Sequence record: PZ445554.1 | DNA: 64,000 bases | Direction: 5' to 3' (one strand) | Source of the DNA: a phage | Program-made: the position numbers and the translations under genes | Notes under the pieces: generated by a model | What the model was told of the DNA's origin: nothing | Seen by the model: only the letters and a program-made list of their open reading frames with translations | The model's database searches: none | Shown: positions 2,252 through 51,018 of the stretch, one piece after another | How the letters are laid out: the number at the start of each line of letters is the position of its first letter | How positions within the stretch are numbered: the first letter of the stretch is position 1

Positions 2252-3211
2252 TCACTTCCACTGCATTTCGCACGCTAATTGAATGAAAAGATATGCTAAA
2301 TGTAATTCCGTATTAGCCGCAATTCCATGATACTGATTATTTTCACCAACAATTTCATACATACGAATAATACTTTGCGGAGTTACACGTGAATAGATTT
2401 CTTCGGCAAGTTTACCCACGAACCACGAATAATCAGCTGCATATTTTGGTGCTAAAGCTCTGAGTTGTTTAACATCTTTATTTTTGAGAGACTCAAGAAC
2501 ATCATCAATAGCACCACGATCGTTAGTAACCAGTGATAAAATACCAGCATCCAAAACACCTTTAGATGAATAACTATCGAGCTCGCCAATAGTTTTACGA
2601 AAATCAGGAAAATTCTTTTTAACCAAAGCTGCTACAACTTTCATATCAGTTATAGCAATTCCTTCATGCTTACAGATTTCAGTCAATCGACGAATCATCT
2701 GCTTCATCATTTCAATTTTATCTTCATCGGTCGGTTGACCGAATGTAATAACTCGACAGCGTGACTGAAGTGGTTTAATAATACCATCAATATTGTTAGC
2801 AGTAATAATAATACTACAGTTTGAACTATAAGCTTCCATAAAGGAACGAAGATGTCGCTGAGACTCTGCTAACCCTGAGCGGTCAAATTCATCAATAACG
2901 ATTACTTTTTGACGACCATCAAATGAAGCGGCGCTGGCAAAATTAGTCAAAGGACCACGAACGAAATCAATTTTACAATCTGACCCATTCACAAACATCA
3001 TATCAGCATTTACATCATGACACAATGCTTTTGCTACAGTTGTTTTACCTGTTCCTGGAGAAGGAGAATGAAGAATAATATGTGGAATCTTACCTTTACT
3101 TGTAATAGATTTAAAGGTTTCTTTATCAAAGGCGGGAAGAATACACTCATCGATAGTAGATGGACGATATTTCTGTTCAAGAATGTGTTCTTTTTCATTT
3201 ACGGTAATCAT
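2252..3211 (-). CDS. 44: Clamp loader large subunit gp44 (AAA+ ATPase)
   Basis: Walker A GTGKTT, Walker B IVIDEFD, SRC motif; 319 aa from internal Met MITVNEK (track ORF carries a 5-codon N-terminal extension). Confidence 0.9.
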
Positions 3212-6590: not shown

Positions 6591-6777
6591 TATCTAAAAT
6601 GTTGAAGTTAAAAGATACAGCCCAGTCAGTGCAGACCGTAACCTTTTTAATACAATTATCTTCAACTTCTAGTGGTTCAAACCAGTATTCAATAATTTCT
6701 TTATGACCAATATCATCTTTTACTTCGCATTCAAAATGCTGACTCATCATAACATTTTTAAATTCATCAAAAGTCAT
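6514..6777 (-). CDS. Hypothetical protein (position of T4 46.2)
   Basis: 87 aa ORF between 47 and 46.1-like ORF. Confidence 0.5.
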   Translation of the reverse strand: MTFDEFKNVMMSQHFECEVKDDIGHKEIIEYWFEPLEVEDNCIKKVTVCTDWAVSFNFNILDNDTPKSLRDMAVSCIKDAYCEVFDI

Positions 6778-7793
6778 TGTGTTGCCTCTACATATAGCTG
6801 ATTTGCATATTGAATAAGTGCTTCACGATCAGAATCAGTGATGTCTGGAATTGCATTAATATACTCTTCCATTAATGTCTGAAGCGATTGAACTTCAACT
6901 TCTTCACTGTCATCTGACTCGACAGAGTTATCAATCTTTGACACAACTCGTAATGAATGCACAACTTTTTCTAGTTCAGATTCGAATTTCGTCAGATTTT
7001 TGTCTACTTCAGTTACTATAACACGTACTGATAGATTTGTAAAATCTTTATAGTCAATTTTTCCTTTAAATGGATAATGAATTCTACGATGCCAGGTAGT
7101 ATTGTTTGGAATAAATTCCATTCGTTCTGTTTCTGTATCAAACATCCAGAACCCACGAGGGTCATTCTCGTCACCTGCTGTTAGTGTCCATGGTGTCCCA
7201 ATATATCTGACGTTTGCAGCCTCAGAAATAGTATGGAAGTGACCAGACCACACTTCTTTATAAGTCTTAAGGAAATCAGGTTCAAGACCGTGAGATTTCA
7301 TTCCTTTATAAAAATAAAATCCATTCAGTTCCCAGTGACCAACACAAAAAGAAGCAGATGAAGTTTTGATGTGTTCAAGAATTTCACCAGTATTTTCTTC
7401 GCACATCCAAGGAATTAAATCAATCAAACACCCGTCAAAATCTACTGTAGTAGGCTTATCATATACTTTAACATTAGGATATTTAGCCAAAAGCTCAGTA
7501 GAGGCATTTGGATGCATTACATTTTTGTAGTGGAGATCGTGATTTCCTACAATAGTATGTAATGTGATTCCAGCGTCATCAAGCATTTGAACTATTTCAC
7601 GGGCAAACTCCATAGTTTTATGTGTGATTGCTTTTCGCACATCAAAAATATCACCATATTGAATCCATACAGTAATTCCATTTTTCTTAGAATATTCTAT
7701 CGCTTGCTTAATTCCATCAATTTGAATACCGCGAATCCACTCATCATCAGCTTTAACGCCTAAATGCCAATCACCCAAGTTTAGTATTTTCAT
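6774..7793 (-). CDS. 47: Recombination endonuclease subunit gp47 (Mre11/SbcD-like phosphoesterase)
   Basis: 339 aa; calcineurin-like phosphoesterase motifs (GDWH, GDIFD, GNHD, GHWE, GHFH). Confidence 0.9.
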   Translation of the reverse strand: MKILNLGDWHLGVKADDEWIRGIQIDGIKQAIEYSKKNGITVWIQYGDIFDVRKAITHKTMEFAREIVQMLDDAGITLHTIVGNHDLHYKNVMHPNASTELLAKYPNVKVYDKPTTVDFDGCLIDLIPWMCEENTGEILEHIKTSSASFCVGHWELNGFYFYKGMKSHGLEPDFLKTYKEVWSGHFHTISEAANVRYIGTPWTLTAGDENDPRGFWMFDTETERMEFIPNNTTWHRRIHYPFKGKIDYKDFTNLSVRVIVTEVDKNLTKFESELEKVVHSLRVVSKIDNSVESDDSEEVEVQSLQTLMEEYINAIPDITDSDREALIQYANQLYVEATQ

Positions 7794-8394
7794 GGTGTCT
7801 TTTCCATCCTAATTTAGCTGCTTTTGAAACCAGTTCTTTAATTTTTCCTTTTGTCCATTCAGGACCAGGAGGTTCATGACATAACATTTGCTTAACTCCG
7901 TTATTATACCATTTTTTACCTTTATTATGTGATGAAGCTTTAAATTTATTTGACCTTCCTTTTGCATAACCTTCTGGAATATAAGGCAAAAAGGCAGATT
8001 TTCCTGTTAATGGATCATGTGAATGTATATTTCCTTTACAATTATGAGAACCATATAATGGATGATTTTGTCCTTTATTATCTCTTCCAAATGAACCTTT
8101 TGGAGCAGCATATGACATATTAAAGAATAATGGATTTTTAACTGCATCATGCAATCGTTGATAATATAACTCGCATTTAATAGCTTCTTCACGCGTATCA
8201 AATTCAGCTAAAATGCATGAATCAAATAAGTGAGGATTATCTGAAAGCTCTTTATTATAAATTTTCTTATACTTTTTAGATAAAACTGAACCATGATATC
8301 CAGCTAAATGCCTATCTAAAGACGTAGATCCAATATAAAAAGGAGGAAGTTTATCTCCACTATATATTGTTAAATAAGTTATATATTTTTTCAT
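7771..8394 (-). CDS. GIY-YIG family endonuclease-like protein (seg-like)
   Basis: 207 aa; N-terminal TIYSG...FYIGST...R..H followed by FDSCILAEF...E..YYQRL, which aligns with the I-TevI/Seg catalytic domain as I recall it; its 3' end overlaps the gene 47 start by 23 nt. Confidence 0.65.
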   Translation of the reverse strand: MKKYITYLTIYSGDKLPPFYIGSTSLDRHLAGYHGSVLSKKYKKIYNKELSDNPHLFDSCILAEFDTREEAIKCELYYQRLHDAVKNPLFFNMSYAAPKGSFGRDNKGQNHPLYGSHNCKGNIHSHDPLTGKSAFLPYIPEGYAKGRSNKFKASSHNKGKKWYNNGVKQMLCHEPPGPEWTKGKIKELVSKAAKLGWKRHHENTKLG

Positions 8395-8531
8395 ATATCA
8401 AGAACCGTCATTGAAATGCAAAATAAAATTATTGAAATAAATCCATCTGGAGTGCTAAAGAACCCAATCCAACATGCTCTAGTGAATAGATAAAATGCAA
8501 GAAAAAGTATCACATATCCAAGAAATATCAT
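8391..8531 (-). CDS. Small hydrophobic peptide (46 aa, predicted membrane)
   Basis: Below ORF-track cut-off; ATG with GGAG RBS 9 nt upstream; MIFLGYVILFLAFYLFTRACWIGFF...; stop overlaps the ATG of the downstream ORF (ATGA). Confidence 0.4.
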   Translation of the reverse strand: MIFLGYVILFLAFYLFTRACWIGFFSTPDGFISIILFCISMTVLDI

Positions 8532-8554
8532 TATATCAAACTCCGTATAAAGCT

Positions 8555-8572
8555 AAAGGGCCGAAGCCCTTT
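8555..8572 (-). terminator. Stem-loop (UUCG tetraloop) after a-gt
   Basis: AAAGGGC-UUCG-GCCCUUU on the minus strand. Confidence 0.5.
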
Positions 8573-9773
8573 ATTTTGTAATAATGTCAAACTGTTCTTT
8601 AAAGCAGAAGCTTGAATCTTGATGCTGATACAAAAATTCATATGCTTTTTCTCGCTCACGGTCATAAAGAGCTCGGTCAGATGACAGTTCTTTAATACGT
8701 TCAAATGTTGATTCCATGTCATTTTCATCAAACCAAATGATACCGCTATCATGCGAGGTCAAAGGAGTATTATCAACACGGAATTTTAAATTTTCGCCAG
8801 TAGATTTCCAAAATACCGGAATTGTTCCACATGCACCAAGCTCGAGATGAGTATATTCTAAAGAACGTTGTAGATATTTTTTATCCAACTTACTCAACTG
8901 ATAACCAAAACCGGATTTACTCATGCGTTCAAGCATTTCGCTATTTACATAACGGTCAAGAATTTGCGTTGGCAAATTAGGAGCAATTTTAATTTGGTCT
9001 ACTTGATGAAGACGATAATACTCGTATGGAATTCCTTTTTCTTTAATAGGAATGAACGCTGGAGAACGTTCCAGACCTTCCATAATAGTACTTAGTCCTG
9101 CAGGTTTAAGATGTTTTTCGTGAAAATCAAACATCTGATAAAAACCTTTCCATGTAGTCGTACGACCAATCCAACGATTGATATTCATGTTAATTTCAGA
9201 AACATCTTTCCAGTAGGTTGACCGAACCTTCGCAATATCCATAGGAGGCTGAAAGTTATATACTGTCGGCGCTTCTTCAATATCATCAAATAAAGAAACT
9301 GTTTCAGGATACCACTCTTTCATCAGAACTTTATTAAAATCACCATTATCAGAATGACTAAAAATAACATCAGCTCGACGAACAGTTTCTTCTAATCCCA
9401 AATTTCGGCGCAAAGAAAGAGAAGAGTGGTCATGTTGATAAACTACAACACGAACCGAAGGTTTAATGTTATCAATAATTTTTTTATAGTTATTAATAGT
9501 GTCTTCTTCAACTGAAGTAGCAGGAACTGAATTGATAATTAGAATATCACAATCATTTACCAGCTTAAGTGTTTTATCGTATTCTTTTGCCAATAAAACC
9601 GGAATTGAAAATGATTTATAATCATGTGCACAGTTACGAGTAAATGATTTATCTTTAGCATAAACCAAAGTTACTTCATGACCATTTTTAATAAACCAAT
9701 CACGTTGCTCAAGAGAAAATTTAGTTACACCACAACCTTCAAGACCCCGAGCCATAAAAATACATACTTTCAT
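8571..9773 (-). CDS. a-gt: DNA alpha-glucosyltransferase
   Basis: 400 aa; sequence recognised as T4 alpha-glucosyltransferase with several substitutions. Confidence 0.85.
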   Translation of the reverse strand: MKVCIFMARGLEGCGVTKFSLEQRDWFIKNGHEVTLVYAKDKSFTRNCAHDYKSFSIPVLLAKEYDKTLKLVNDCDILIINSVPATSVEEDTINNYKKIIDNIKPSVRVVVYQHDHSSLSLRRNLGLEETVRRADVIFSHSDNGDFNKVLMKEWYPETVSLFDDIEEAPTVYNFQPPMDIAKVRSTYWKDVSEINMNINRWIGRTTTWKGFYQMFDFHEKHLKPAGLSTIMEGLERSPAFIPIKEKGIPYEYYRLHQVDQIKIAPNLPTQILDRYVNSEMLERMSKSGFGYQLSKLDKKYLQRSLEYTHLELGACGTIPVFWKSTGENLKFRVDNTPLTSHDSGIIWFDENDMESTFERIKELSSDRALYDREREKAYEFLYQHQDSSFCFKEQFDIITK

Positions 9774-9824
9774 TTAATATCCTCTTTGTTTTGGTTTATT
9801 TTACCAAAAATTTATAAAGCAATA

Positions 9825-9840
9825 TAGGAGCCGAAGCTCC
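9825..9840 (-). terminator. Stem-loop (UUCG tetraloop)
   Basis: GGAGC-UUCG-GCUCC. Confidence 0.45.
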
Positions 9841-10013
9841 TATCCACATAATACGCCATACAGAGGCTCGTTAGAACTTTTAAATTTTATGCGCTTATAT
9901 GTTATAGTTCCTTCTGCTTTAGCTTTATCATGAGACTCTTTAAAGCGTCTCATCATTTCCTCTTTAGAGGAACGAATTTTATTATAATCTATTTCAGAAG
10001 TCTGGGTGTTCAT
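9840..10013 (-). CDS. Small hypothetical protein (57 aa)
   Basis: Below track cut-off; ATG start; stop lies at the edge of a tetraloop hairpin. Confidence 0.35.
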   Translation of the reverse strand: MNTQTSEIDYNKIRSSKEEMMRRFKESHDKAKAEGTITYKRIKFKSSNEPLYGVLCG

Positions 10014-10507: not shown

Positions 10508-10753
10508 TTATTTCTCTAATATAAAATAAAAATCATCATCTGTTAAATGATACCGATAGTTTAATTCTACACCATTAGATTTAAAAGCGGTATCATACGG
10601 ATTTTCTGGATCAATATCAATGTCAAGAGCTAAAACCTCCCTGAGATACATTTTAAGTAAATAGGGAATAGCTTCAACTTCAGGTATTTCTTCCAAGAAT
10701 CCGGAGAGGTTAATCGTTAGCCTCATATAAAAAATCCAAACTAGGAGAATCAT
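10508..10753 (-). CDS. Hypothetical protein
   Basis: 81 aa ORF; N-terminus overlaps the 3' end of gene 55, so the true start is uncertain. Confidence 0.4.
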
Positions 10754-11267
10754 CTACAACACTTTTCTTTTCAGCCCCCGGTGTTCTATAGGTTGATTCT
10801 TCGTAATGCGTCATTTTATCGTAGATGTCTTGAATAAAAGTTTCATCTACTAACGCAACCATATCGTCGTCACGGCTGTCATAGACATTGTGAACGAAGT
10901 AACTATATTTCTTTGCAACTTCCTTACGTTCCTTTTTAATACGTTGGACGAATGCATTAAAACAAGCTTGAGTTATATATGCATGTGGGTTTTTATATTT
11001 CGTTTCATCAAAATTATGAAGCCCCTTAATAGAAGCTTCTATACCATCTGCAATCATTTCTTGTTTCCAAGATTGGGTGTATCCTGAAAAGTTGAAACGT
11101 TTAGATAAGCCTTCTGCAATAAGCATAATGGCTAATCCGATAGTATCATTCTGACGAACTACTTTATTTGGGTCTTTATTATTTGCTAATTCTGTTTTCC
11201 AATCAATAATAGCTTGTAAAAGCTCTTTATTGTTTACGTAATTATATTTAGGCTTAGTTTCTGACAT
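10710..11267 (-). CDS. 55: Late-transcription sigma factor gp55
   Basis: 185 aa from Met [17 protein letters not shown], recognised as T4 gp55; track ORF carries a 2-codon extension. Confidence 0.88.
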
Positions 11268-11345
11268 TTTCACCTCTTAGCTCAATTCATAGATCTATTA
11301 TATCATAATATTTGAAGATCTATCTTAAAGCATAGAGAATATCAG

Positions 11346-14115: not shown

Positions 14116-14586
14116 TTAATCATGTTTCCACACCCCATCGGTATTTGACCAAAGCCGCTGATTATCTGATCCTCGCCACAGCTTTTTAGTCGGAAGATTT
14201 TTCTCATACTTCCCATCAATAATAACATCAACATATTTAAGCATTTCTAGTTGTTTAATATCTTCAAACTTATATCCTGTCCACAACCAAATGCTTTTAT
14301 TGGGATAAAGATTTTTTACTGTTTGAACGATGCAATGAATAACATCTCGGTTATCAGGATAGAGAGGGTCTCCTCCAGTTATAGTTAATCCTTCTATATA
14401 ATCATTATTCAAACATTCAATTAATTGTTCTAGTGTTTCACCAGTGAATGGAATACCATTTCTAGCATTCCATGTTGATTTATTATAACACCCTTCACAT
14501 TTATGCAAACAACCTGTAACGAAAAGAACGACCCTGCAACCAGGGCCATTCACAAAATCACAAGGATAAAATCTATCATAATTCAT
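14116..14586 (-). CDS. nrdG: Anaerobic ribonucleotide reductase activating protein (radical SAM)
   Basis: 156 aa; Cys-rich N-terminus (CRVVLFVTGCLHKCEGC); adjacent to nrdD. Confidence 0.85.
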   Translation of the reverse strand: MNYDRFYPCDFVNGPGCRVVLFVTGCLHKCEGCYNKSTWNARNGIPFTGETLEQLIECLNNDYIEGLTITGGDPLYPDNRDVIHCIVQTVKNLYPNKSIWLWTGYKFEDIKQLEMLKYVDVIIDGKYEKNLPTKKLWRGSDNQRLWSNTDGVWKHD

Positions 14587-16400
14587 TGATGCTTAACCCT
14601 ATGCATGATTTCTTTATTTTTACCGAGATTAAATCCGCGTTCGTTAGGATTTCCCAAATAACCACATGTTCTTCTTATTGTGTTCATCTTTTTAGGATCA
14701 GTTTCTCCACAAATAGAACAAACAAATCCGTTTTCAGTAGGAGTCATTTCATGGGTACTTCCGCATGTAAAACATTTATCTACCGGCATGTTAACACCAA
14801 AATAATCTAAATGTTGTGCAGCATAATCCCATACGGCCTCAAGACCCTTTAAGTTATTTTTCATATCAGGAAGTTCAACATAAGAAATGTGACCACCTGT
14901 CGCAATGAAATGATATGGCGCTTCACGAGAAATCTTTTCAAACGGAGTAATATTTTCTTCTACTGAGACATGGAAACTGTTAGTGTACCAGCCTTTATCG
15001 GTAACATCTTTTACGCTTCCATATTTTTCTGTATCGAGTTTACAGAAGCGATAACAAAGGTTTTCAGCAGGAGTCGAATATAAACTAAAAGCAAATCCGG
15101 TTCTTTCAGTCCACTGTTTAAGATGAGCATTCATTTTAGTTAAAATTTCTCGTCCAATATCACGACCGACAAGAATATTCAATTCGTGAATACCAATGTA
15201 TCCTAAAGACACTGAACTTCTACCGTTTTTAAATAACTCAATTATGTCGTCATCAGGTTTAAGACGAACCCCAAATGCACCTTCTTGGTAAAGAATAGGA
15301 GCAACAGTAGCTTTAACTCCTTTTAAGGAACTAATTCTACACATCAAAGCTTCAAAACATAAATCCATTCGTTCATTGAATAATTCAACAAATTTCTGTT
15401 CATTGAACTGTGTTCCAATATAAGAATCTAACGCGATGCGAGGAAGATTCAATGTTACAACACCAAGATTATTACGTCCATCAAGAATTTCATTGCCAGT
15501 CGAATCTTTCCATACGCTCAAGAAACTACGGCAACCCATTGGAGAAACAGGAACAGATGAACCAGTGATAGCTTTATTATTCTTAGCTGAAATAATATCA
15601 GGATACATTCTTTTGCTTGCACACTCTAGAGCAAGCTGCTTAATATCATAGTTCGGATCGTCTTTATAAAGATTAACACCTTCTTCAACGAACATAACAA
15701 GCTTAGGGAAAATAGGAGTTATCCCATCACGACCAAGACCTTTAATACGATTTTTCAGAATTGCTTTCTGAATCATTCGTTCAGTCCAGTCAGTTCCCGT
15801 ACCAAATGTAATTGTTACAAAAGGAGTCTGTCCGTTTGAACTAAAGAGAGTATTTACTTCATATTCATAAGCTTGGAATGCATCGTATACGTCTTTTTCT
15901 GTTTTAGATTGAGCATAATTCAACGCATCAGCGATTTGCCATTTTTCTGCATCCTCAATATGTTTTGCATAGGTGCGTTTAACATAAGGAGAAAGTACTT
16001 TATCTACATTCGCAAAAGTCGTTCCGCCGTATTGGTGAGAAGCAACCTGTGCAGTAATTTGTGCCATAATTGCAGTAGCAACGCCAATTGATTTAGGAGT
16101 TTCAATCTGTGCATTACCAAGCTTAAATCCGTTCTCAAGCATTCCTTTTAAATCTACTAAACAGCAATTAGTAAATGGAAGAGCAGGGGAATAATCAATA
16201 TCATGGAAATGAATAATTCCGCTTTCATGCGCTTTCATAATAAAAGACGGGACCATATTTTTGGCAATGTGTTTAGACACAATACCAGCCATAAGGTCCC
16301 GTTGAGTTGGAAAAACACGAGAATCTTTATTAGCATTCTCGTTTAAAAGGTCTTTATTAGTTTTATGAATCAATCCTTCAATTTCTTTTTCAATTGTCAT
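14583..16400 (-). CDS. nrdD: Anaerobic ribonucleoside-triphosphate reductase (glycyl radical enzyme), uninterrupted
   Basis: 605 aa continuous ORF; C-terminal zinc ribbon CFTCGS...CSICG and glycyl-radical motif RRTCGYLG. Confidence 0.9.
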   Translation of the reverse strand: MTIEKEIEGLIHKTNKDLLNENANKDSRVFPTQRDLMAGIVSKHIAKNMVPSFIMKAHESGIIHFHDIDYSPALPFTNCCLVDLKGMLENGFKLGNAQIETPKSIGVATAIMAQITAQVASHQYGGTTFANVDKVLSPYVKRTYAKHIEDAEKWQIADALNYAQSKTEKDVYDAFQAYEYEVNTLFSSNGQTPFVTITFGTGTDWTERMIQKAILKNRIKGLGRDGITPIFPKLVMFVEEGVNLYKDDPNYDIKQLALECASKRMYPDIISAKNNKAITGSSVPVSPMGCRSFLSVWKDSTGNEILDGRNNLGVVTLNLPRIALDSYIGTQFNEQKFVELFNERMDLCFEALMCRISSLKGVKATVAPILYQEGAFGVRLKPDDDIIELFKNGRSSVSLGYIGIHELNILVGRDIGREILTKMNAHLKQWTERTGFAFSLYSTPAENLCYRFCKLDTEKYGSVKDVTDKGWYTNSFHVSVEENITPFEKISREAPYHFIATGGHISYVELPDMKNNLKGLEAVWDYAAQHLDYFGVNMPVDKCFTCGSTHEMTPTENGFVCSICGETDPKKMNTIRRTCGYLGNPNERGFNLGKNKEIMHRVKHQ

Positions 16401-25766: not shown

Positions 25767-26780
25767 TCATTTATAATAACTTCGGTGGTTTTCAAGATAG
25801 ACCTTCTCAAGGAAGTCATCCCAGAAACCCATGTCTACTTTTTGCTGCATACCGTTCTTAGAAGCTTCAGTAGATGCTGCTTCTACTTGATCGACCACAT
25901 CTTCCAAAAACTCTTGAACTGTTTTAAATGGATGCTTACCCAACTTCACGTCGAGAATAAATGGAGCATCTTGGAGTGGATAAACCAAGTCACCGGTTTT
26001 GTAAATTTCCAATAGTTGAAGTCCACCACGACAAGCATGGCTCAGAGCTTTCCAGTCAATACCTTCATTGGCTTCGGCCTTACGAGCACGTTCACCATAT
26101 TCAGCATCTAATTTGTTCAGTGACTGCTTAAGCTCAATAAGAGAAAGAGTTGTCTGATATTTACGACCCAACACAGTGTAGAACGTTTGTGGGCCTGTTT
26201 TCTCATGATTATAGAACACCCATTCACAGAATTCGTTTTCTGGAAGACGATGCTTAATATCTTCAACTTTAGTACGACGCTGCTTAATGGAACCGTCTTC
26301 TTGGTAATCAACCCATTGCTCAGGGATTTGATTAACTACTTTCAATACATCACGTAATGCAGCCAAACGAGAACCCTTGACACCGTATTTAGAAGCTTGC
26401 TTACGGACATATCCTAAATAGGATTTCATGTTAGTCGTATAAAAACGAGAACGGTTGTCTTGAATAAACTTCCACACGTCAGGCAAATCAGATTTAACCA
26501 CTAGCTCAGGTGGAGTGTGAAGCATATCCAATGCTACAGTTTCACCATCTGCTGCTAATTTAAAGAAATATTTAAGACTGTATAGTTCATGGTCAATATC
26601 ATCTTTAGTGTTTTTAGATGATGTGTTGTTAGTGTTTTTACTCATGTGCTCTTTGACATTTCCGATAAGAATATCGCGAGCAGGAGGAACAAAGATTTCT
26701 TTAAAATCTATATCAGATTCTGGGGTAGAAGTTCCATAAAGATGACTACCAAAATAGCTTTTCATTACTGTTTTCATCAT
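25767..26780 (-). CDS. Predicted nucleotidyltransferase (Pol-beta superfamily fold)
   Basis: N-terminal FGSHLYGTSTPESDIDF, i.e. G-S, ten residues, D-x-D, the signature of minimal nucleotidyltransferases; 337 aa. Confidence 0.55.
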   Translation of the reverse strand: MMKTVMKSYFGSHLYGTSTPESDIDFKEIFVPPARDILIGNVKEHMSKNTNNTSSKNTKDDIDHELYSLKYFFKLAADGETVALDMLHTPPELVVKSDLPDVWKFIQDNRSRFYTTNMKSYLGYVRKQASKYGVKGSRLAALRDVLKVVNQIPEQWVDYQEDGSIKQRRTKVEDIKHRLPENEFCEWVFYNHEKTGPQTFYTVLGRKYQTTLSLIELKQSLNKLDAEYGERARKAEANEGIDWKALSHACRGGLQLLEIYKTGDLVYPLQDAPFILDVKLGKHPFKTVQEFLEDVVDQVEAASTEASKNGMQQKVDMGFWDDFLEKVYLENHRSYYK

Positions 26781-27238
26781 TCAGCCTTATATTCAATAAC
26801 AGGACATACTTTAGCTTTACGAGCTTTTAAAAATTCAACGATAACCGATTTCTTGGGTTGAATAGGAGGTAAACCTTTATACGCCCTATCAATATTTTCT
26901 ACGTGTAAAGCATAATCCTTTTTCCATTTATAATCTTTATATTTTTCACGCAAATGTGCAGGAATAACAAATGAACCAATAATAAGTAAAACAACCAAAA
27001 GCGCAAGTATAAATGCCGATGGAAGAAGAGTCCATAAACTACCAAAAATAAGCCAGCGCTGTAAACTTTCTGCACAAATAATTGTTAGCCCTACGAGTAT
27101 AGCACACCCAAAAATAGAAACGAAAAATGTAGGGATAACAATAGACCAAAAATATGCGCATAGTGTCTTAGGTCGTTGCCATTCATCGTTAAACAATTTG
27201 AATAATTTATAATGCCAAGAGTTTTCATTAATAATCAT
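26777..27238 (-). CDS. Integral membrane protein
   Basis: 153 aa with about three hydrophobic helices. Confidence 0.5.
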   Translation of the reverse strand: MIINENSWHYKLFKLFNDEWQRPKTLCAYFWSIVIPTFFVSIFGCAILVGLTIICAESLQRWLIFGSLWTLLPSAFILALLVVLLIIGSFVIPAHLREKYKDYKWKKDYALHVENIDRAYKGLPPIQPKKSVIVEFLKARKAKVCPVIEYKAE

Positions 27239-27240
27239 AA

Positions 27241-27762
27241 TTATCCTTTCATTGAAGGTGTAACAGTTGTTAAATACTTAATCATAGCTTCAGCTTCTGA
27301 TTTTGATAATGAAATTTCTCCATTGTTTTGACGAATAGAAATAAAATCCGGATGACGGTCACCACCAGCTTTTAAAACACACATATAAGTATCAACTTCG
27401 CCTTCAATATTTGAAATGATTGAAGCAGTTCCACATGAATGCGGTTTTTGATAAATCAATACAGCTTTTCTTCCGCCATTTGACTGCTCATAGGCTTTTA
27501 ATACATCAAGCAAATCAGTTCTTTTATCAATAGCTAAAATGTTATTTTCATCTTCAATGTTAAATCCTTCAGATACTTCATAAAGCGTTACCCATAAATC
27601 ACCAATGTCAATAACAGCATTTACTTTTCCACGGCTTTCAAGAGTATGACAAATTTTCTTGATTTCGTCATAACTCATTTTAATAATATCATCTCCTTGA
27701 CTAAGGAAGATGTCATTTTTAAATTCAACACGAATTAAACCACTTCCACTTGAAATAAACAT
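27241..27762 (-). CDS. Hypothetical protein (paralog of next ORF)
   Basis: 173 aa; C-terminus EAEAMIKYLTTVTPSMKG resembles that of the 181-aa neighbour. Confidence 0.5.
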   Translation of the reverse strand: MFISSGSGLIRVEFKNDIFLSQGDDIIKMSYDEIKKICHTLESRGKVNAVIDIGDLWVTLYEVSEGFNIEDENNILAIDKRTDLLDVLKAYEQSNGGRKAVLIYQKPHSCGTASIISNIEGEVDTYMCVLKAGGDRHPDFISIRQNNGEISLSKSEAEAMIKYLTTVTPSMKG

Positions 27763-41260: not shown

Positions 41261-41815
41261 TTACCGGTAGCGACCCGGTTTCTCATTTGGTATTTCAAAT
41301 TGTGTAGATTTAGTATCTAATTTTTTAACTATGGAACTTATGTCATGAAAGAAAAACCATTCACCATTTATATGGTCCTGATTATAAATGCTGTGCATAT
41401 ATTTTTCAAGTTCTACTGCATCCTGGGAATATCTAAATGATACTATTTTAAAACTTTTAAACGGTGAAAATGTATTTGCTGTTATAACTCTAACATCAGG
41501 TTCTATACTTCTTCCTATTTTATAATAATTAGGATTTGTAGTATCTACCATTATGTATACGAAAGCCTGTCGATAGCTTTTTTCTATATCAAATTCATCT
41601 TTAAATTTCAAAAGATTTAGGGCGGCAGTCCTACAAAATACTTTCCATTTTGACAAGCGTTTGGCTTTAGTCATAGAAAAGAATTTTTTCTTATCTGTTA
41701 TTTTAAGAAAAGCAACATTTTCAATTAGTTCTTGTGTTATTTCAAAATTACCATGGTATATTAATCCAGCTTTTATAGCCAAATTAATTTGGTCCCAGTC
41801 TACATCACTTCTCAT
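41261..41815 (-). CDS. T5orf172-type (GIY-YIG-like fold) domain protein inside the tRNA cluster
   Basis: 184 aa; FVYIMVDTTNPNYYKIGRS...R...ELEKYMHSIYNQDHINGEWFFF matches the T5orf172/MUG113 domain pattern as I recall it. Confidence 0.55.
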   Translation of the reverse strand: MRSDVDWDQINLAIKAGLIYHGNFEITQELIENVAFLKITDKKKFFSMTKAKRLSKWKVFCRTAALNLLKFKDEFDIEKSYRQAFVYIMVDTTNPNYYKIGRSIEPDVRVITANTFSPFKSFKIVSFRYSQDAVELEKYMHSIYNQDHINGEWFFFHDISSIVKKLDTKSTQFEIPNEKPGRYR

Positions 41816-50229: not shown

Positions 50230-50724
50230 ATGGAAGGTTCTTCTATCGACGTCACCTTTACCGCTCAATTAGAAACAGGTGAAACGTTAGTATCTATAAA
50301 TATAACTAGTTACGAAGAAACTCCTGGGGTTTTAGTAGAAGAAAATCGCTTATATGGAACATATGAATCTGTGTTTGGATTTGGAAATGACGCGTTGAAA
50401 TATCGTTTAGTTGATGAATTTAAAACTGCTGCTTCATGGGAAGACCTTCCAACTGATTCTAATACTCAGTTATATTTATGGAAAGCTCCTCAAAACCTCC
50501 AGAAGACATTCACTTACGAAGTAACATTAATATATGACTACCAAGAACAAAGTGAATCTGGAGGTTCTGGCAGTAATTCTAGATCATCTTCTGATACTAC
50601 TGAACCGACAGATCCTCCTGCTCTAGTAAGAAAAACTCTCGTTAAAAATTATACTAAAACTATAGTTGGAAATTGGAGTCGTTGGGCTAATAAATTAAGA
50701 AGCTATGTGTATGAGAGGTCATAG
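50230..50724 (+). CDS. Hypothetical protein (position of T4 5.1)
   Basis: Start at Met [10 protein letters not shown] with GGAG RBS; the longer track ORF overlaps the gene 5 end. Confidence 0.5.
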
Positions 50725-51018
50725 ATGTCAGGATTAAGTTATGATAAATGTGTTACTGCTGGTCATGAAGCATGGCCTCCAACAGTTGTGAATGCTACAC
50801 AAAGTAAAGTATTCACTGGAGGAATTGCTGTTCTCGTAGCAGGTGATCCAATTACAGAACATACAGAAATTAAAAAGCCATATGAAACACATGGCGGAGT
50901 GACACAACCCAGAACTTCTAAGGTATATGTCACTGGAAAGAAAGCTGTTCAAATGGCTGATCCAATATCATGCGGTGATACTGTGGCTCAGGCATCATCT
51001 AAAGTATTCATTAAATAG
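50725..51018 (+). CDS. 5.4: PAAR-repeat spike tip protein gp5.4
   Basis: 97 aa; recognised as T4 gp5.4-like. Confidence 0.8.

Follow-up and report, generated by a model that had tools for sequence, protein, structure and literature searches.

A probable free-standing Seg-family GIY-YIG homing endonuclease gene between genes 47.1 and 47 of a Tequatrovirus

We analysed a stretch of phage DNA of 64,000 nt (record PZ445554.1; called the window here, its positions being used as coordinates throughout) and studied a 207-amino-acid (aa) open reading frame (ORF) that precedes and overlaps gene 47. This ORF is most probably a free-standing Seg-family GIY-YIG homing endonuclease gene (HEG), precisely inserted between the resident genes 47.1 and 47 of a Tequatrovirus, a reading to which we give a probability of about three in four. 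The structure of the gene, its fold and family, the boundaries of the insertion, its distribution in the phage population and the purifying selection acting on it are established here, while nuclease activity, homing and the place of the target are what we infer by analogy with characterised Seg enzymes. Among the effects of free-standing homing endonucleases on T-even phages are marker exclusion and locus-specific mosaicism. Enzymes of the Seg family cleave relatives that lack the HEG and are preferentially inherited (PMC2988022).

Insertion of the gene relative to T4

In T4 (NC_000866), genes a-gt, 47.1 and 47 follow one another in direct succession, the stop codon of 47.1 and the start codon of 47 share an ATGA, and the 207-aa ORF is absent. 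This settles a point left open by an earlier sequence-only reading of the window, namely whether T4 has such a gene at this position. Direct alignment showed that the window is identical to T4 over the final ~300 nt of a-gt, over 47.1 and up to ...GATATATGAAAA; a stretch that T4 does not have comes next, and homology restarts at ATGAAAAT in gene 47. The alignment gave an insert of 601 bp flanked by 7-nt ATGAAAA repeats. Since the insertion lies at this repeat, the HEG begins in what is the start context of T4 gene 47, and the sequence ahead of gene 47 is now the 3' end of the HEG (...TTAGGATGGAAAAGACACC ATG). The features of the locus are the following.

7771-8394, minus strand: probable Seg-like GIY-YIG homing endonuclease gene, 207-aa ORF with an ATG start
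8104-8394, minus strand: N-terminal catalytic domain (~aa 1-97), predicted beta-beta-alpha-alpha-beta-alpha fold, key residues Y7, Y20-I21-G22, R28, E75 and N92
7774-8103, minus strand: C-terminal putative DNA-binding region (~aa 98-207), from the SegE profile alignment and the predicted structure
7794-8394, minus strand: 601-bp segment not in T4, from the T4 alignment, with edges ambiguous within the 7-nt repeat
8388-8394, minus strand: left ATGAAAA repeat, start of the HEG and former gene 47 start context, its ATGA overlapping the 47.1 stop
7787-7793, minus strand: right ATGAAAA repeat, start of gene 47
8391-8531, minus strand: gene 47.1, 46-aa predicted membrane protein, nucleotide-identical to T4 47.1 (phrog_6693, 1.5e-31)
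6774-7793, minus strand: gene 47, 339 aa, Mre11/SbcD-like nuclease subunit (Pfam Metallophos), 98% identical to T4 gene 47
7776-7785, minus strand: four silent substitutions in codons 3-6 of gene 47 (nt 9, 10, 15 and 18), ATACTAAACTTG versus the T4-type ATTTTAAATTTA

The sequence-only reading had described a 207-aa ORF with a GIY-YIG core overlapping the start of gene 47, and both the ORF and its overlap of 23 nt (7771-7793) were confirmed. The HEG has no stop codon of its own and terminates at the TGA within GGTGAT, which encodes the Gly-Asp of the GDWH motif of gene 47. The same reading had joined to it a translationally coupled 46-aa hydrophobic ORF. The overlap of the two is indeed present, as the stop codon of the small ORF and the start codon of the 207-aa ORF lie together in the ATGA at 8391-8394, but the small ORF is not part of the element: it is the resident T4 gene 47.1, which in phages without the HEG adjoins gene 47 with the same ATGA coupling, and which is also located next to gene 47 in HEG-less phages of other genera. 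The 46-aa ORF is a neighbour of the mobile element and not a component of it. The possibility, raised at the same time, that the 207-aa ORF was itself the conserved 47.1 gene does not apply, the two being different genes. Upstream of the insert, a-gt is mosaic in comparison with T4, with an identity of 74-91% over approximately its first 900 nt and of 99.6-100% over its last ~460 nt and 47.1, which places a recombination boundary within a-gt, some hundreds of bp before the insert.

Catalytic domain, fold and family

Database searches with the 207-aa protein gave 169 homologues at E<=1e-3, many of which carry NUMOD3 modules. A family alignment was made from 32 homologues, the lowest identity being 32%, and residues Y7, T9, Y11, G13, P17, Y20, I21, G22, S23, Y33, G35, S39, E49, L56, F57, A71, E75 and N92 were invariant in all of them. 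I5-T6-Y7 and Y20-I21-G22, corresponding to the two N-terminal motifs that GIY-YIG nucleases carry ~10-12 residues apart, are located on predicted strands (residues 4-11 and 19-25, respectively), E75 lies within a helix (residues 68-81) and N92 comes after the helix; E75 and N92 were equated with E75 and N90 of I-TevI by position and fold, not by residue-level superposition. In the AlphaFold2 model, for which the family alignment served as input, residues 1-95 had a predicted local distance difference test (pLDDT) score of 91-98 and adopted the beta-beta-alpha-alpha-beta-alpha layout of GIY-YIG domains. Comparison of the model with viral models (BFVD) by Foldseek showed that the named neighbours were nearly all GIY-YIG, NUMOD or Seg-like endonucleases, about one third of the top 50 being nameless.

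Search of a ten-sequence set of T4 proteins with the family profile (hmmsearch, E-values relating to that set) gave SegE at 3e-14 over its full length, SegG at 1e-7, SegB and SegC at 1e-6 and SegA at 3e-4, and the alignment with SegA by hhalign had a probability of 91%. Pfam GIY-YIG was matched by 12 and NUMOD3 by 13 of the 32 family members. The invariant motif residues and the full-length profile similarity to T4 SegE uphold the GIY-YIG assignment of the sequence-only reading, though the Pfam score of the protein is below the curated cut-off. As judged from sequence and modelled fold, the 207-aa protein is a Seg-family GIY-YIG protein.

The protein was assigned to phrog_10820 (1e-93), which has the label 'HNH endonuclease', and more weakly to phrog_314, 'homing endonuclease'. 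The HNH label, which is also that of RefSeq, is wrong: no HNH family of Pfam matched the 207-aa protein at E<=1, and its fold, motifs and structural neighbours are those of GIY-YIG proteins. The RefSeq and PHROG label should read GIY-YIG (Seg-like) homing endonuclease instead. The source names of the protein cluster were 'hypothetical protein', 'HNH endonuclease', 'GIY-YIG domain-containing protein' (UniRef) and 'putative homing endonuclease' (BASEL), none being a seg name. A search of NCBIfam with the protein gave no meaningful match, and tblastn found no paralogues of the HEG within the window.

The C-terminal region was predicted, with its pLDDT values, to form two beta-hairpin modules, ...LPYIPEGYAKGR and KKWYNNG...PPGPEWTKGK, followed by a disordered tail. 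The SegE profile alignment takes in the WxNNG...PxG(F/W)xxG motifs of this region, and a Pfam search with the C-terminal half alone gave no match. On the strength of the motifs, it is a putative SegE-like DNA-binding region.

Distribution, alleles and selection

DNA of the HEG was found at an identity of at least 95% in 69 phage records, and a 120-nt probe across the HEG/47 junction was found in 70, while the uninterrupted T4-type 47.1/47 junction was found in ~520 Tequatrovirus records, including T4, T2, RB3, RB14 and RB32. The comparison of the region from 47 to a-gt across T-even phages, which had been proposed with the sequence-only reading, thus gives a HEG that is present in ~70 records and absent from ~520, or present in ~12% of the sequenced Tequatroviruses and absent from T4 and ~85% of its sequenced relatives. 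Across these records, the pattern of presence and absence is that expected of a free-standing homing endonuclease gene.

Comparison of natural alleles showed that those of SH-2 and Killian differ from the copy of the window by 18-23 nt substitutions (3-4%) and by only 4-5 amino acids. The ratio of nonsynonymous to synonymous substitution rates (dN/dS) between natural alleles was ~0.07 over the whole protein, the catalytic domain included, and the protein is therefore under purifying selection. Many records leave the ORF unannotated or call it a 'hypothetical protein', as they might for a chance ORF or an annotation artefact, but such an origin is hardly conceivable: the 169 homologues, the phrog_10820 match and this dN/dS rule out a chance ORF, and the predicted fold is a confident one.

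Two apparent cases of decay were rejected. What looks like a 'partial' copy of the HEG in Shigella phage KNP5 is due to a run of Ns that fills a gap in the assembly, and the split copy of KPV15 stands beside a frameshifted copy of the essential gene 47, which makes a sequencing error likely.

Homing endonuclease gene or relic

Several observations weigh against a functional homing endonuclease gene at this locus. With 20.6 bits (E=5.8e-4, residues 4-84 aligned), the 207-aa protein stays below the gathering threshold of PF01541, which is 22.6 bits, and a sequence-profile search of the Protein Data Bank (PDB) gave no match for the family. The column equivalent to R27 of I-TevI, occupied by R28 here, contains a lysine or an arginine in ~26 of the 32 homologues and an asparagine or a glutamate in the others. 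The copies of ESh16, ZCEC15 and KMB22 are frameshifted, the shifts being located in A-runs, and full-text literature searches found no paper on this gene. The T4 mobile-element review mentions no HEG at 47.1/47. The frameshifts, from A6 to A7 near nt 478 (common to two records) and from A5 to A4 near nt 550 (with a 194-aa product that is also present in assembly P0124), may be real decay or sequencing error.

The score below the Pfam cut-off and the variable position of the catalytic arginine could be those of a catalytically dead or domesticated relic, no longer mobile and kept for the ribosome-binding region and start context of gene 47 or as a DNA-binding regulator (cf. the autorepression by I-TevI). 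The 3' end of the HEG overlaps and precedes gene 47, so that an imprecise deletion would be harmful, and the diversity of the HEG in Tequatrovirus (96-100% identity) is like that of its flanks, which points to long residence and not to a recent sweep. However, proven Seg enzymes share the first two traits: the experimentally active T4 SegE is likewise below the PF01541 cut-off (21.6 bits), and T4 SegA to SegE also lack an obvious arginine at the position of R27 of I-TevI. From the SegE comparison, the sub-threshold score appears to reflect the sensitivity of the Pfam model to the Seg branch more than membership of the family. No substitution of the GIY, YIG, Glu or Asn residues occurs among the 32 homologues, however distant, the low dN/dS extends over the catalytic domain, and the HEG is patchily distributed, on diverse flanking haplotypes, which fits mobility. 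We consider a relic unlikely.

The same site in other genera

Relatives of the HEG (59-76% identical) were found directly against gene 47 in three other genera. The relative overlaps gene 47 by 23 nt in Gelderlandvirus SEA1, where neither a-gt nor 47.1 is located upstream, and also by 23 nt in Dhakavirus QL01, and it adjoins gene 47 in Jiaodavirus KPV15; the upstream neighbours of these homologues differ between genera. A paralogue in Yersinia phage TG1 has the same N-terminal domain, a NUMOD3 C-terminus and a position upstream of the topoisomerase gene. As far as these sequences indicate, the family members at gene 47 are tied to its 5' end, and C-terminal regions differ from locus to locus.

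These positions bear on another reading, in which the protein would be an active GIY-YIG nuclease with a main role other than homing here, either as a weapon in inter-phage competition or as an anti-defence driver of recombination that cuts elsewhere, its position at gene 47 being incidental. The cleavage sites of Seg enzymes can be distant from the gene (PMC2988022), two recent papers report that homing endonucleases benefit phages, through SegB-driven amplification (PMC13096335) and interference competition (PMC11620839), and the polymorphism associated with the HEG within +/-1.4 kb is limited to nt 9-18 of gene 47. Yet related genes lie directly against the start of gene 47 in four genera that differ in the genes upstream, which argues for a locus-specific association, and family members located elsewhere differ in their C-terminal DNA-binding modules, as they should if it is the C-terminus that determines the locus. 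A main role other than homing is, in our view, also unlikely.

Silent changes in gene 47 and the possible target

Gene 47 of the window differs from that of T4 at nt 9, 10, 15 and 18, all four changes being silent, and the next difference is at nt 124. The four clustered changes were found in every HEG-carrying phage examined. We then compared the flanks (1.4 kb upstream and 1.5 kb downstream) of four HEG-carrying genomes with those of seven T4-type HEG-less genomes. The fixed differences between the two groups in these 2.9 kb of recombination-shuffled flanks were solely nt 9, 15 and 18 of gene 47; nt 10 differs too, but the HEG-less RB14 has the base of the HEG-carrying phages and is an intermediate form. 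The presence of at least four differences within the first 18 nt has a p value of ~7e-4 under random placement. A similar cluster (nt 9, 10, 12, 15 and 18) distinguishes QL01 from its HEG-less relatives.

It is possible, though doubtful, that the population shows three stages of a life cycle, namely a sensitive empty site with ATTTTAAATTTA (~85%), an occupied site (~12%) and an empty site with ATACTAAACTTG (at least four phages, probably seven), the target being the first ~20 bp of gene 47. The third class could result from precise excision between the 7-bp ATGAAAA repeats. An imprecise loss would not be tolerated, since the HEG depends on gene 47 for its stop codon and provides the ribosome-binding region of that gene. 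If this were true, the target would lie just before the GDWH metal-binding motif of the essential Mre11-like gene 47, and the product of the targeted gene would be the one that resects the breaks on which homing depends.

Other results count against a target at this place. The same cluster was read in the sequences of four HEG-less phages (SHFML-26, BCPEco_001, YwIITB1 and UGKSEcP1), on different haplotypes, and it is probably carried by the HEG-less BCPSen_003, PBM-1 and EPIMAM01, as judged from BLAST identity only. Linkage of the cluster to the HEG is expected automatically, because the sites are within 18 bp of the insert. Gelderlandvirus had to be rejected as a third replicate of the silent changes: the HEG-carrying SEA1 and the HEG-less UoN_LG358_1 are identical over nt 1-68 of gene 47, so that the pattern does not hold generally. 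Moreover, the cleavage sites of Seg enzymes are usually hundreds of bp or more from the gene (PMC2988022). The cluster is at most a candidate for a cleavage-resistant target variant, a remnant of the donor gene 47 or a marker of an excision scar, and the HEG-less carriers of the variant could be excision scars, carriers of a pre-existing allele or products of selected resistance.

Two other observations were made at the start of gene 47. In the phages of records L013-L015, the opening ~30 nt of the gene (positions 3001-3030) match T4 exactly although gp47 is only 72-73% identical to that of the window, which suggests that this end of the gene is either constrained at the nucleotide level or subject to gene conversion. 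SHFML-26 (L038, 3024-3120+) and BCPEco_001 (L041, 3024-3120+), which are HEG-less and have the variant gene 47 start, carry an extra 855-nt ORF between 46.1 and 46, where T4 and the window have nothing; this ORF is annotated as a 'homing endonuclease' in SHFML-26 and as a 'hypothetical protein' in BCPEco_001.

Expression and proposed mechanism

The order of the genes in the direction of transcription, all on the minus strand, is gene 55, the small a-gt.x ORFs, a-gt, a hairpin, the 46-aa ORF, the 207-aa ORF, gene 47, 46.2, 46.1 and 46. The features upstream of 47.1 are the following.

10710-11273, minus strand: gene 55, from the ORF list
8571-9773, minus strand: a-gt, 400 aa (Pfam AGT, E=1.8e-237)
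8554-8573, minus strand: GGGC-UUCG-GCCC tetraloop hairpin between a-gt and 47.1, identical to the T4 copy (context only)

No T4 late promoter (TATAAATA) was found in or near the HEG, and sigma-70-like matches at the HEG were not commoner than in shuffled sequence. As it has no recognisable promoter of its own, the HEG is presumably read from a-gt/47.1 transcripts. Hairpins that sequester the ribosome-binding site have been described for some phage endonuclease genes; such a hairpin was rejected here, as the RNA folding at the 47.1/HEG and HEG/47 junctions was no better than that of shuffles. Two UUCG-tetraloop hairpins are located around a-gt, AGGAGC-UUCG-GCUCCU upstream (9824-9843, minus strand) and GGGC-UUCG-GCCC downstream, and hairpins of this kind are typical of the stable intercistronic hairpins of T4.

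Translation of the HEG would be coupled to that of 47.1 through the ATGA context that links 47.1 to 47 in T4, and the 3' end of the HEG now provides the ribosome-binding region of gene 47. By analogy with SegA to SegG, the enzyme would make, in a mixed infection, a site-specific double-strand break within the 47.1/47 region of a HEG-less phage infecting the same cell, gene 47 being the presumed target gene. Repair from the HEG-carrying genome would copy the gene and its flanking markers into the recipient, leading to intronless homing and marker exclusion. The HEG-carrying genome would owe its protection to the insertion, to the four silent changes of gene 47 or to the two combined.

Other differences from T4 in the window

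Several elements of T4 are absent from the window, namely mobB (whose place is between a-gt and a-gt.2), mobC, the group I intron of nrdD together with I-TevII, and segC/5.3; the corresponding junctions are located at 9774-9839, 14566-14586, 15862-15865 and 50721-50726. The set of homing endonuclease genes of the window therefore differs widely from that of T4. A 184-aa ORF (41261-41815, minus strand) with T5orf172/MUG113 domains, a GIY-YIG-related putative endonuclease, is located in the tRNA cluster at the place of T4 segB, where homology to T4 breaks between 41293 and 42274 of the window. The place of T4 mobD (26777-27762, minus strand) is occupied by two other ORFs, one of 153 aa with weak, sub-cut-off Pfam matches to two membrane-protein families and one of 173 aa encoding a y05I-like putative transcription factor (PF24449/PF24448).

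To our knowledge, the free-standing homing endonucleases that have been studied are T4 SegA to SegG, MobA to MobE and a few others. The HEG at 47.1/47 is an uncharacterised member of this well-known class and changes no concept; it belongs to the Seg family, is frequent, intact and under selection, and occupies a site without an insert in T4, beside an essential recombination nuclease gene. It would also offer an easy experimental system, with T4 as a natural recipient and the natural HEG-less carriers of the variant as candidate resistant controls.

Comparison with known systems

Members of the Seg family are expected to make a site-specific double-strand cleavage of the HEG-less allele, with a 2-nt 3' overhang. 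The 207-aa gene differs from that of I-TevI (catalytic domain PDB 1LN0), which is intron-encoded and has a DNA-binding region made of a Zn finger, NUMOD3 and a helix-turn-helix (HTH), in that it is free-standing and has another C-terminus. The 207-aa protein has no detectable sequence-profile match to any PDB chain, and conservation of the equivalent of Arg27 is uncertain in its family.

The likeness to segF and segG, whose targets are genes 56 and 32, lies in a position directly against, or partly within, a conserved gene that is essential or nearly so (gene 56 in the case of the overlapping segF), in a presence that varies among T-even phages and in the marker exclusion expected for neighbouring alleles. 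The cleavage sites, co-conversion tracts and resistant polymorphisms of SegF and SegG were mapped experimentally, whereas the signature at gene 47 is an ambiguous one, in sequence only.

T4 SegE, a free-standing GIY-YIG homing endonuclease encoded between inh and uvsW, differs from the 207-aa protein in its locus, which is 47.1/47 here, and in the sequence after the YIG motif (DGYLGSG in SegE and GYHGSV here); pairwise identity is only ~27%, and Pfam SegE_GIY-YIG is matched by SegE and not by the 207-aa protein. Nevertheless, the two are of similar size (205 aa for SegE and 207 aa here) and have a two-part architecture in common, both are just under the Pfam GIY-YIG cut-off, both genes are free-standing between conserved genes, and the profile alignment starts at the YIG motif, reaches the C-terminus and takes in the repeated WxNNG...PxG(F/W)xKG(R/K) modules.

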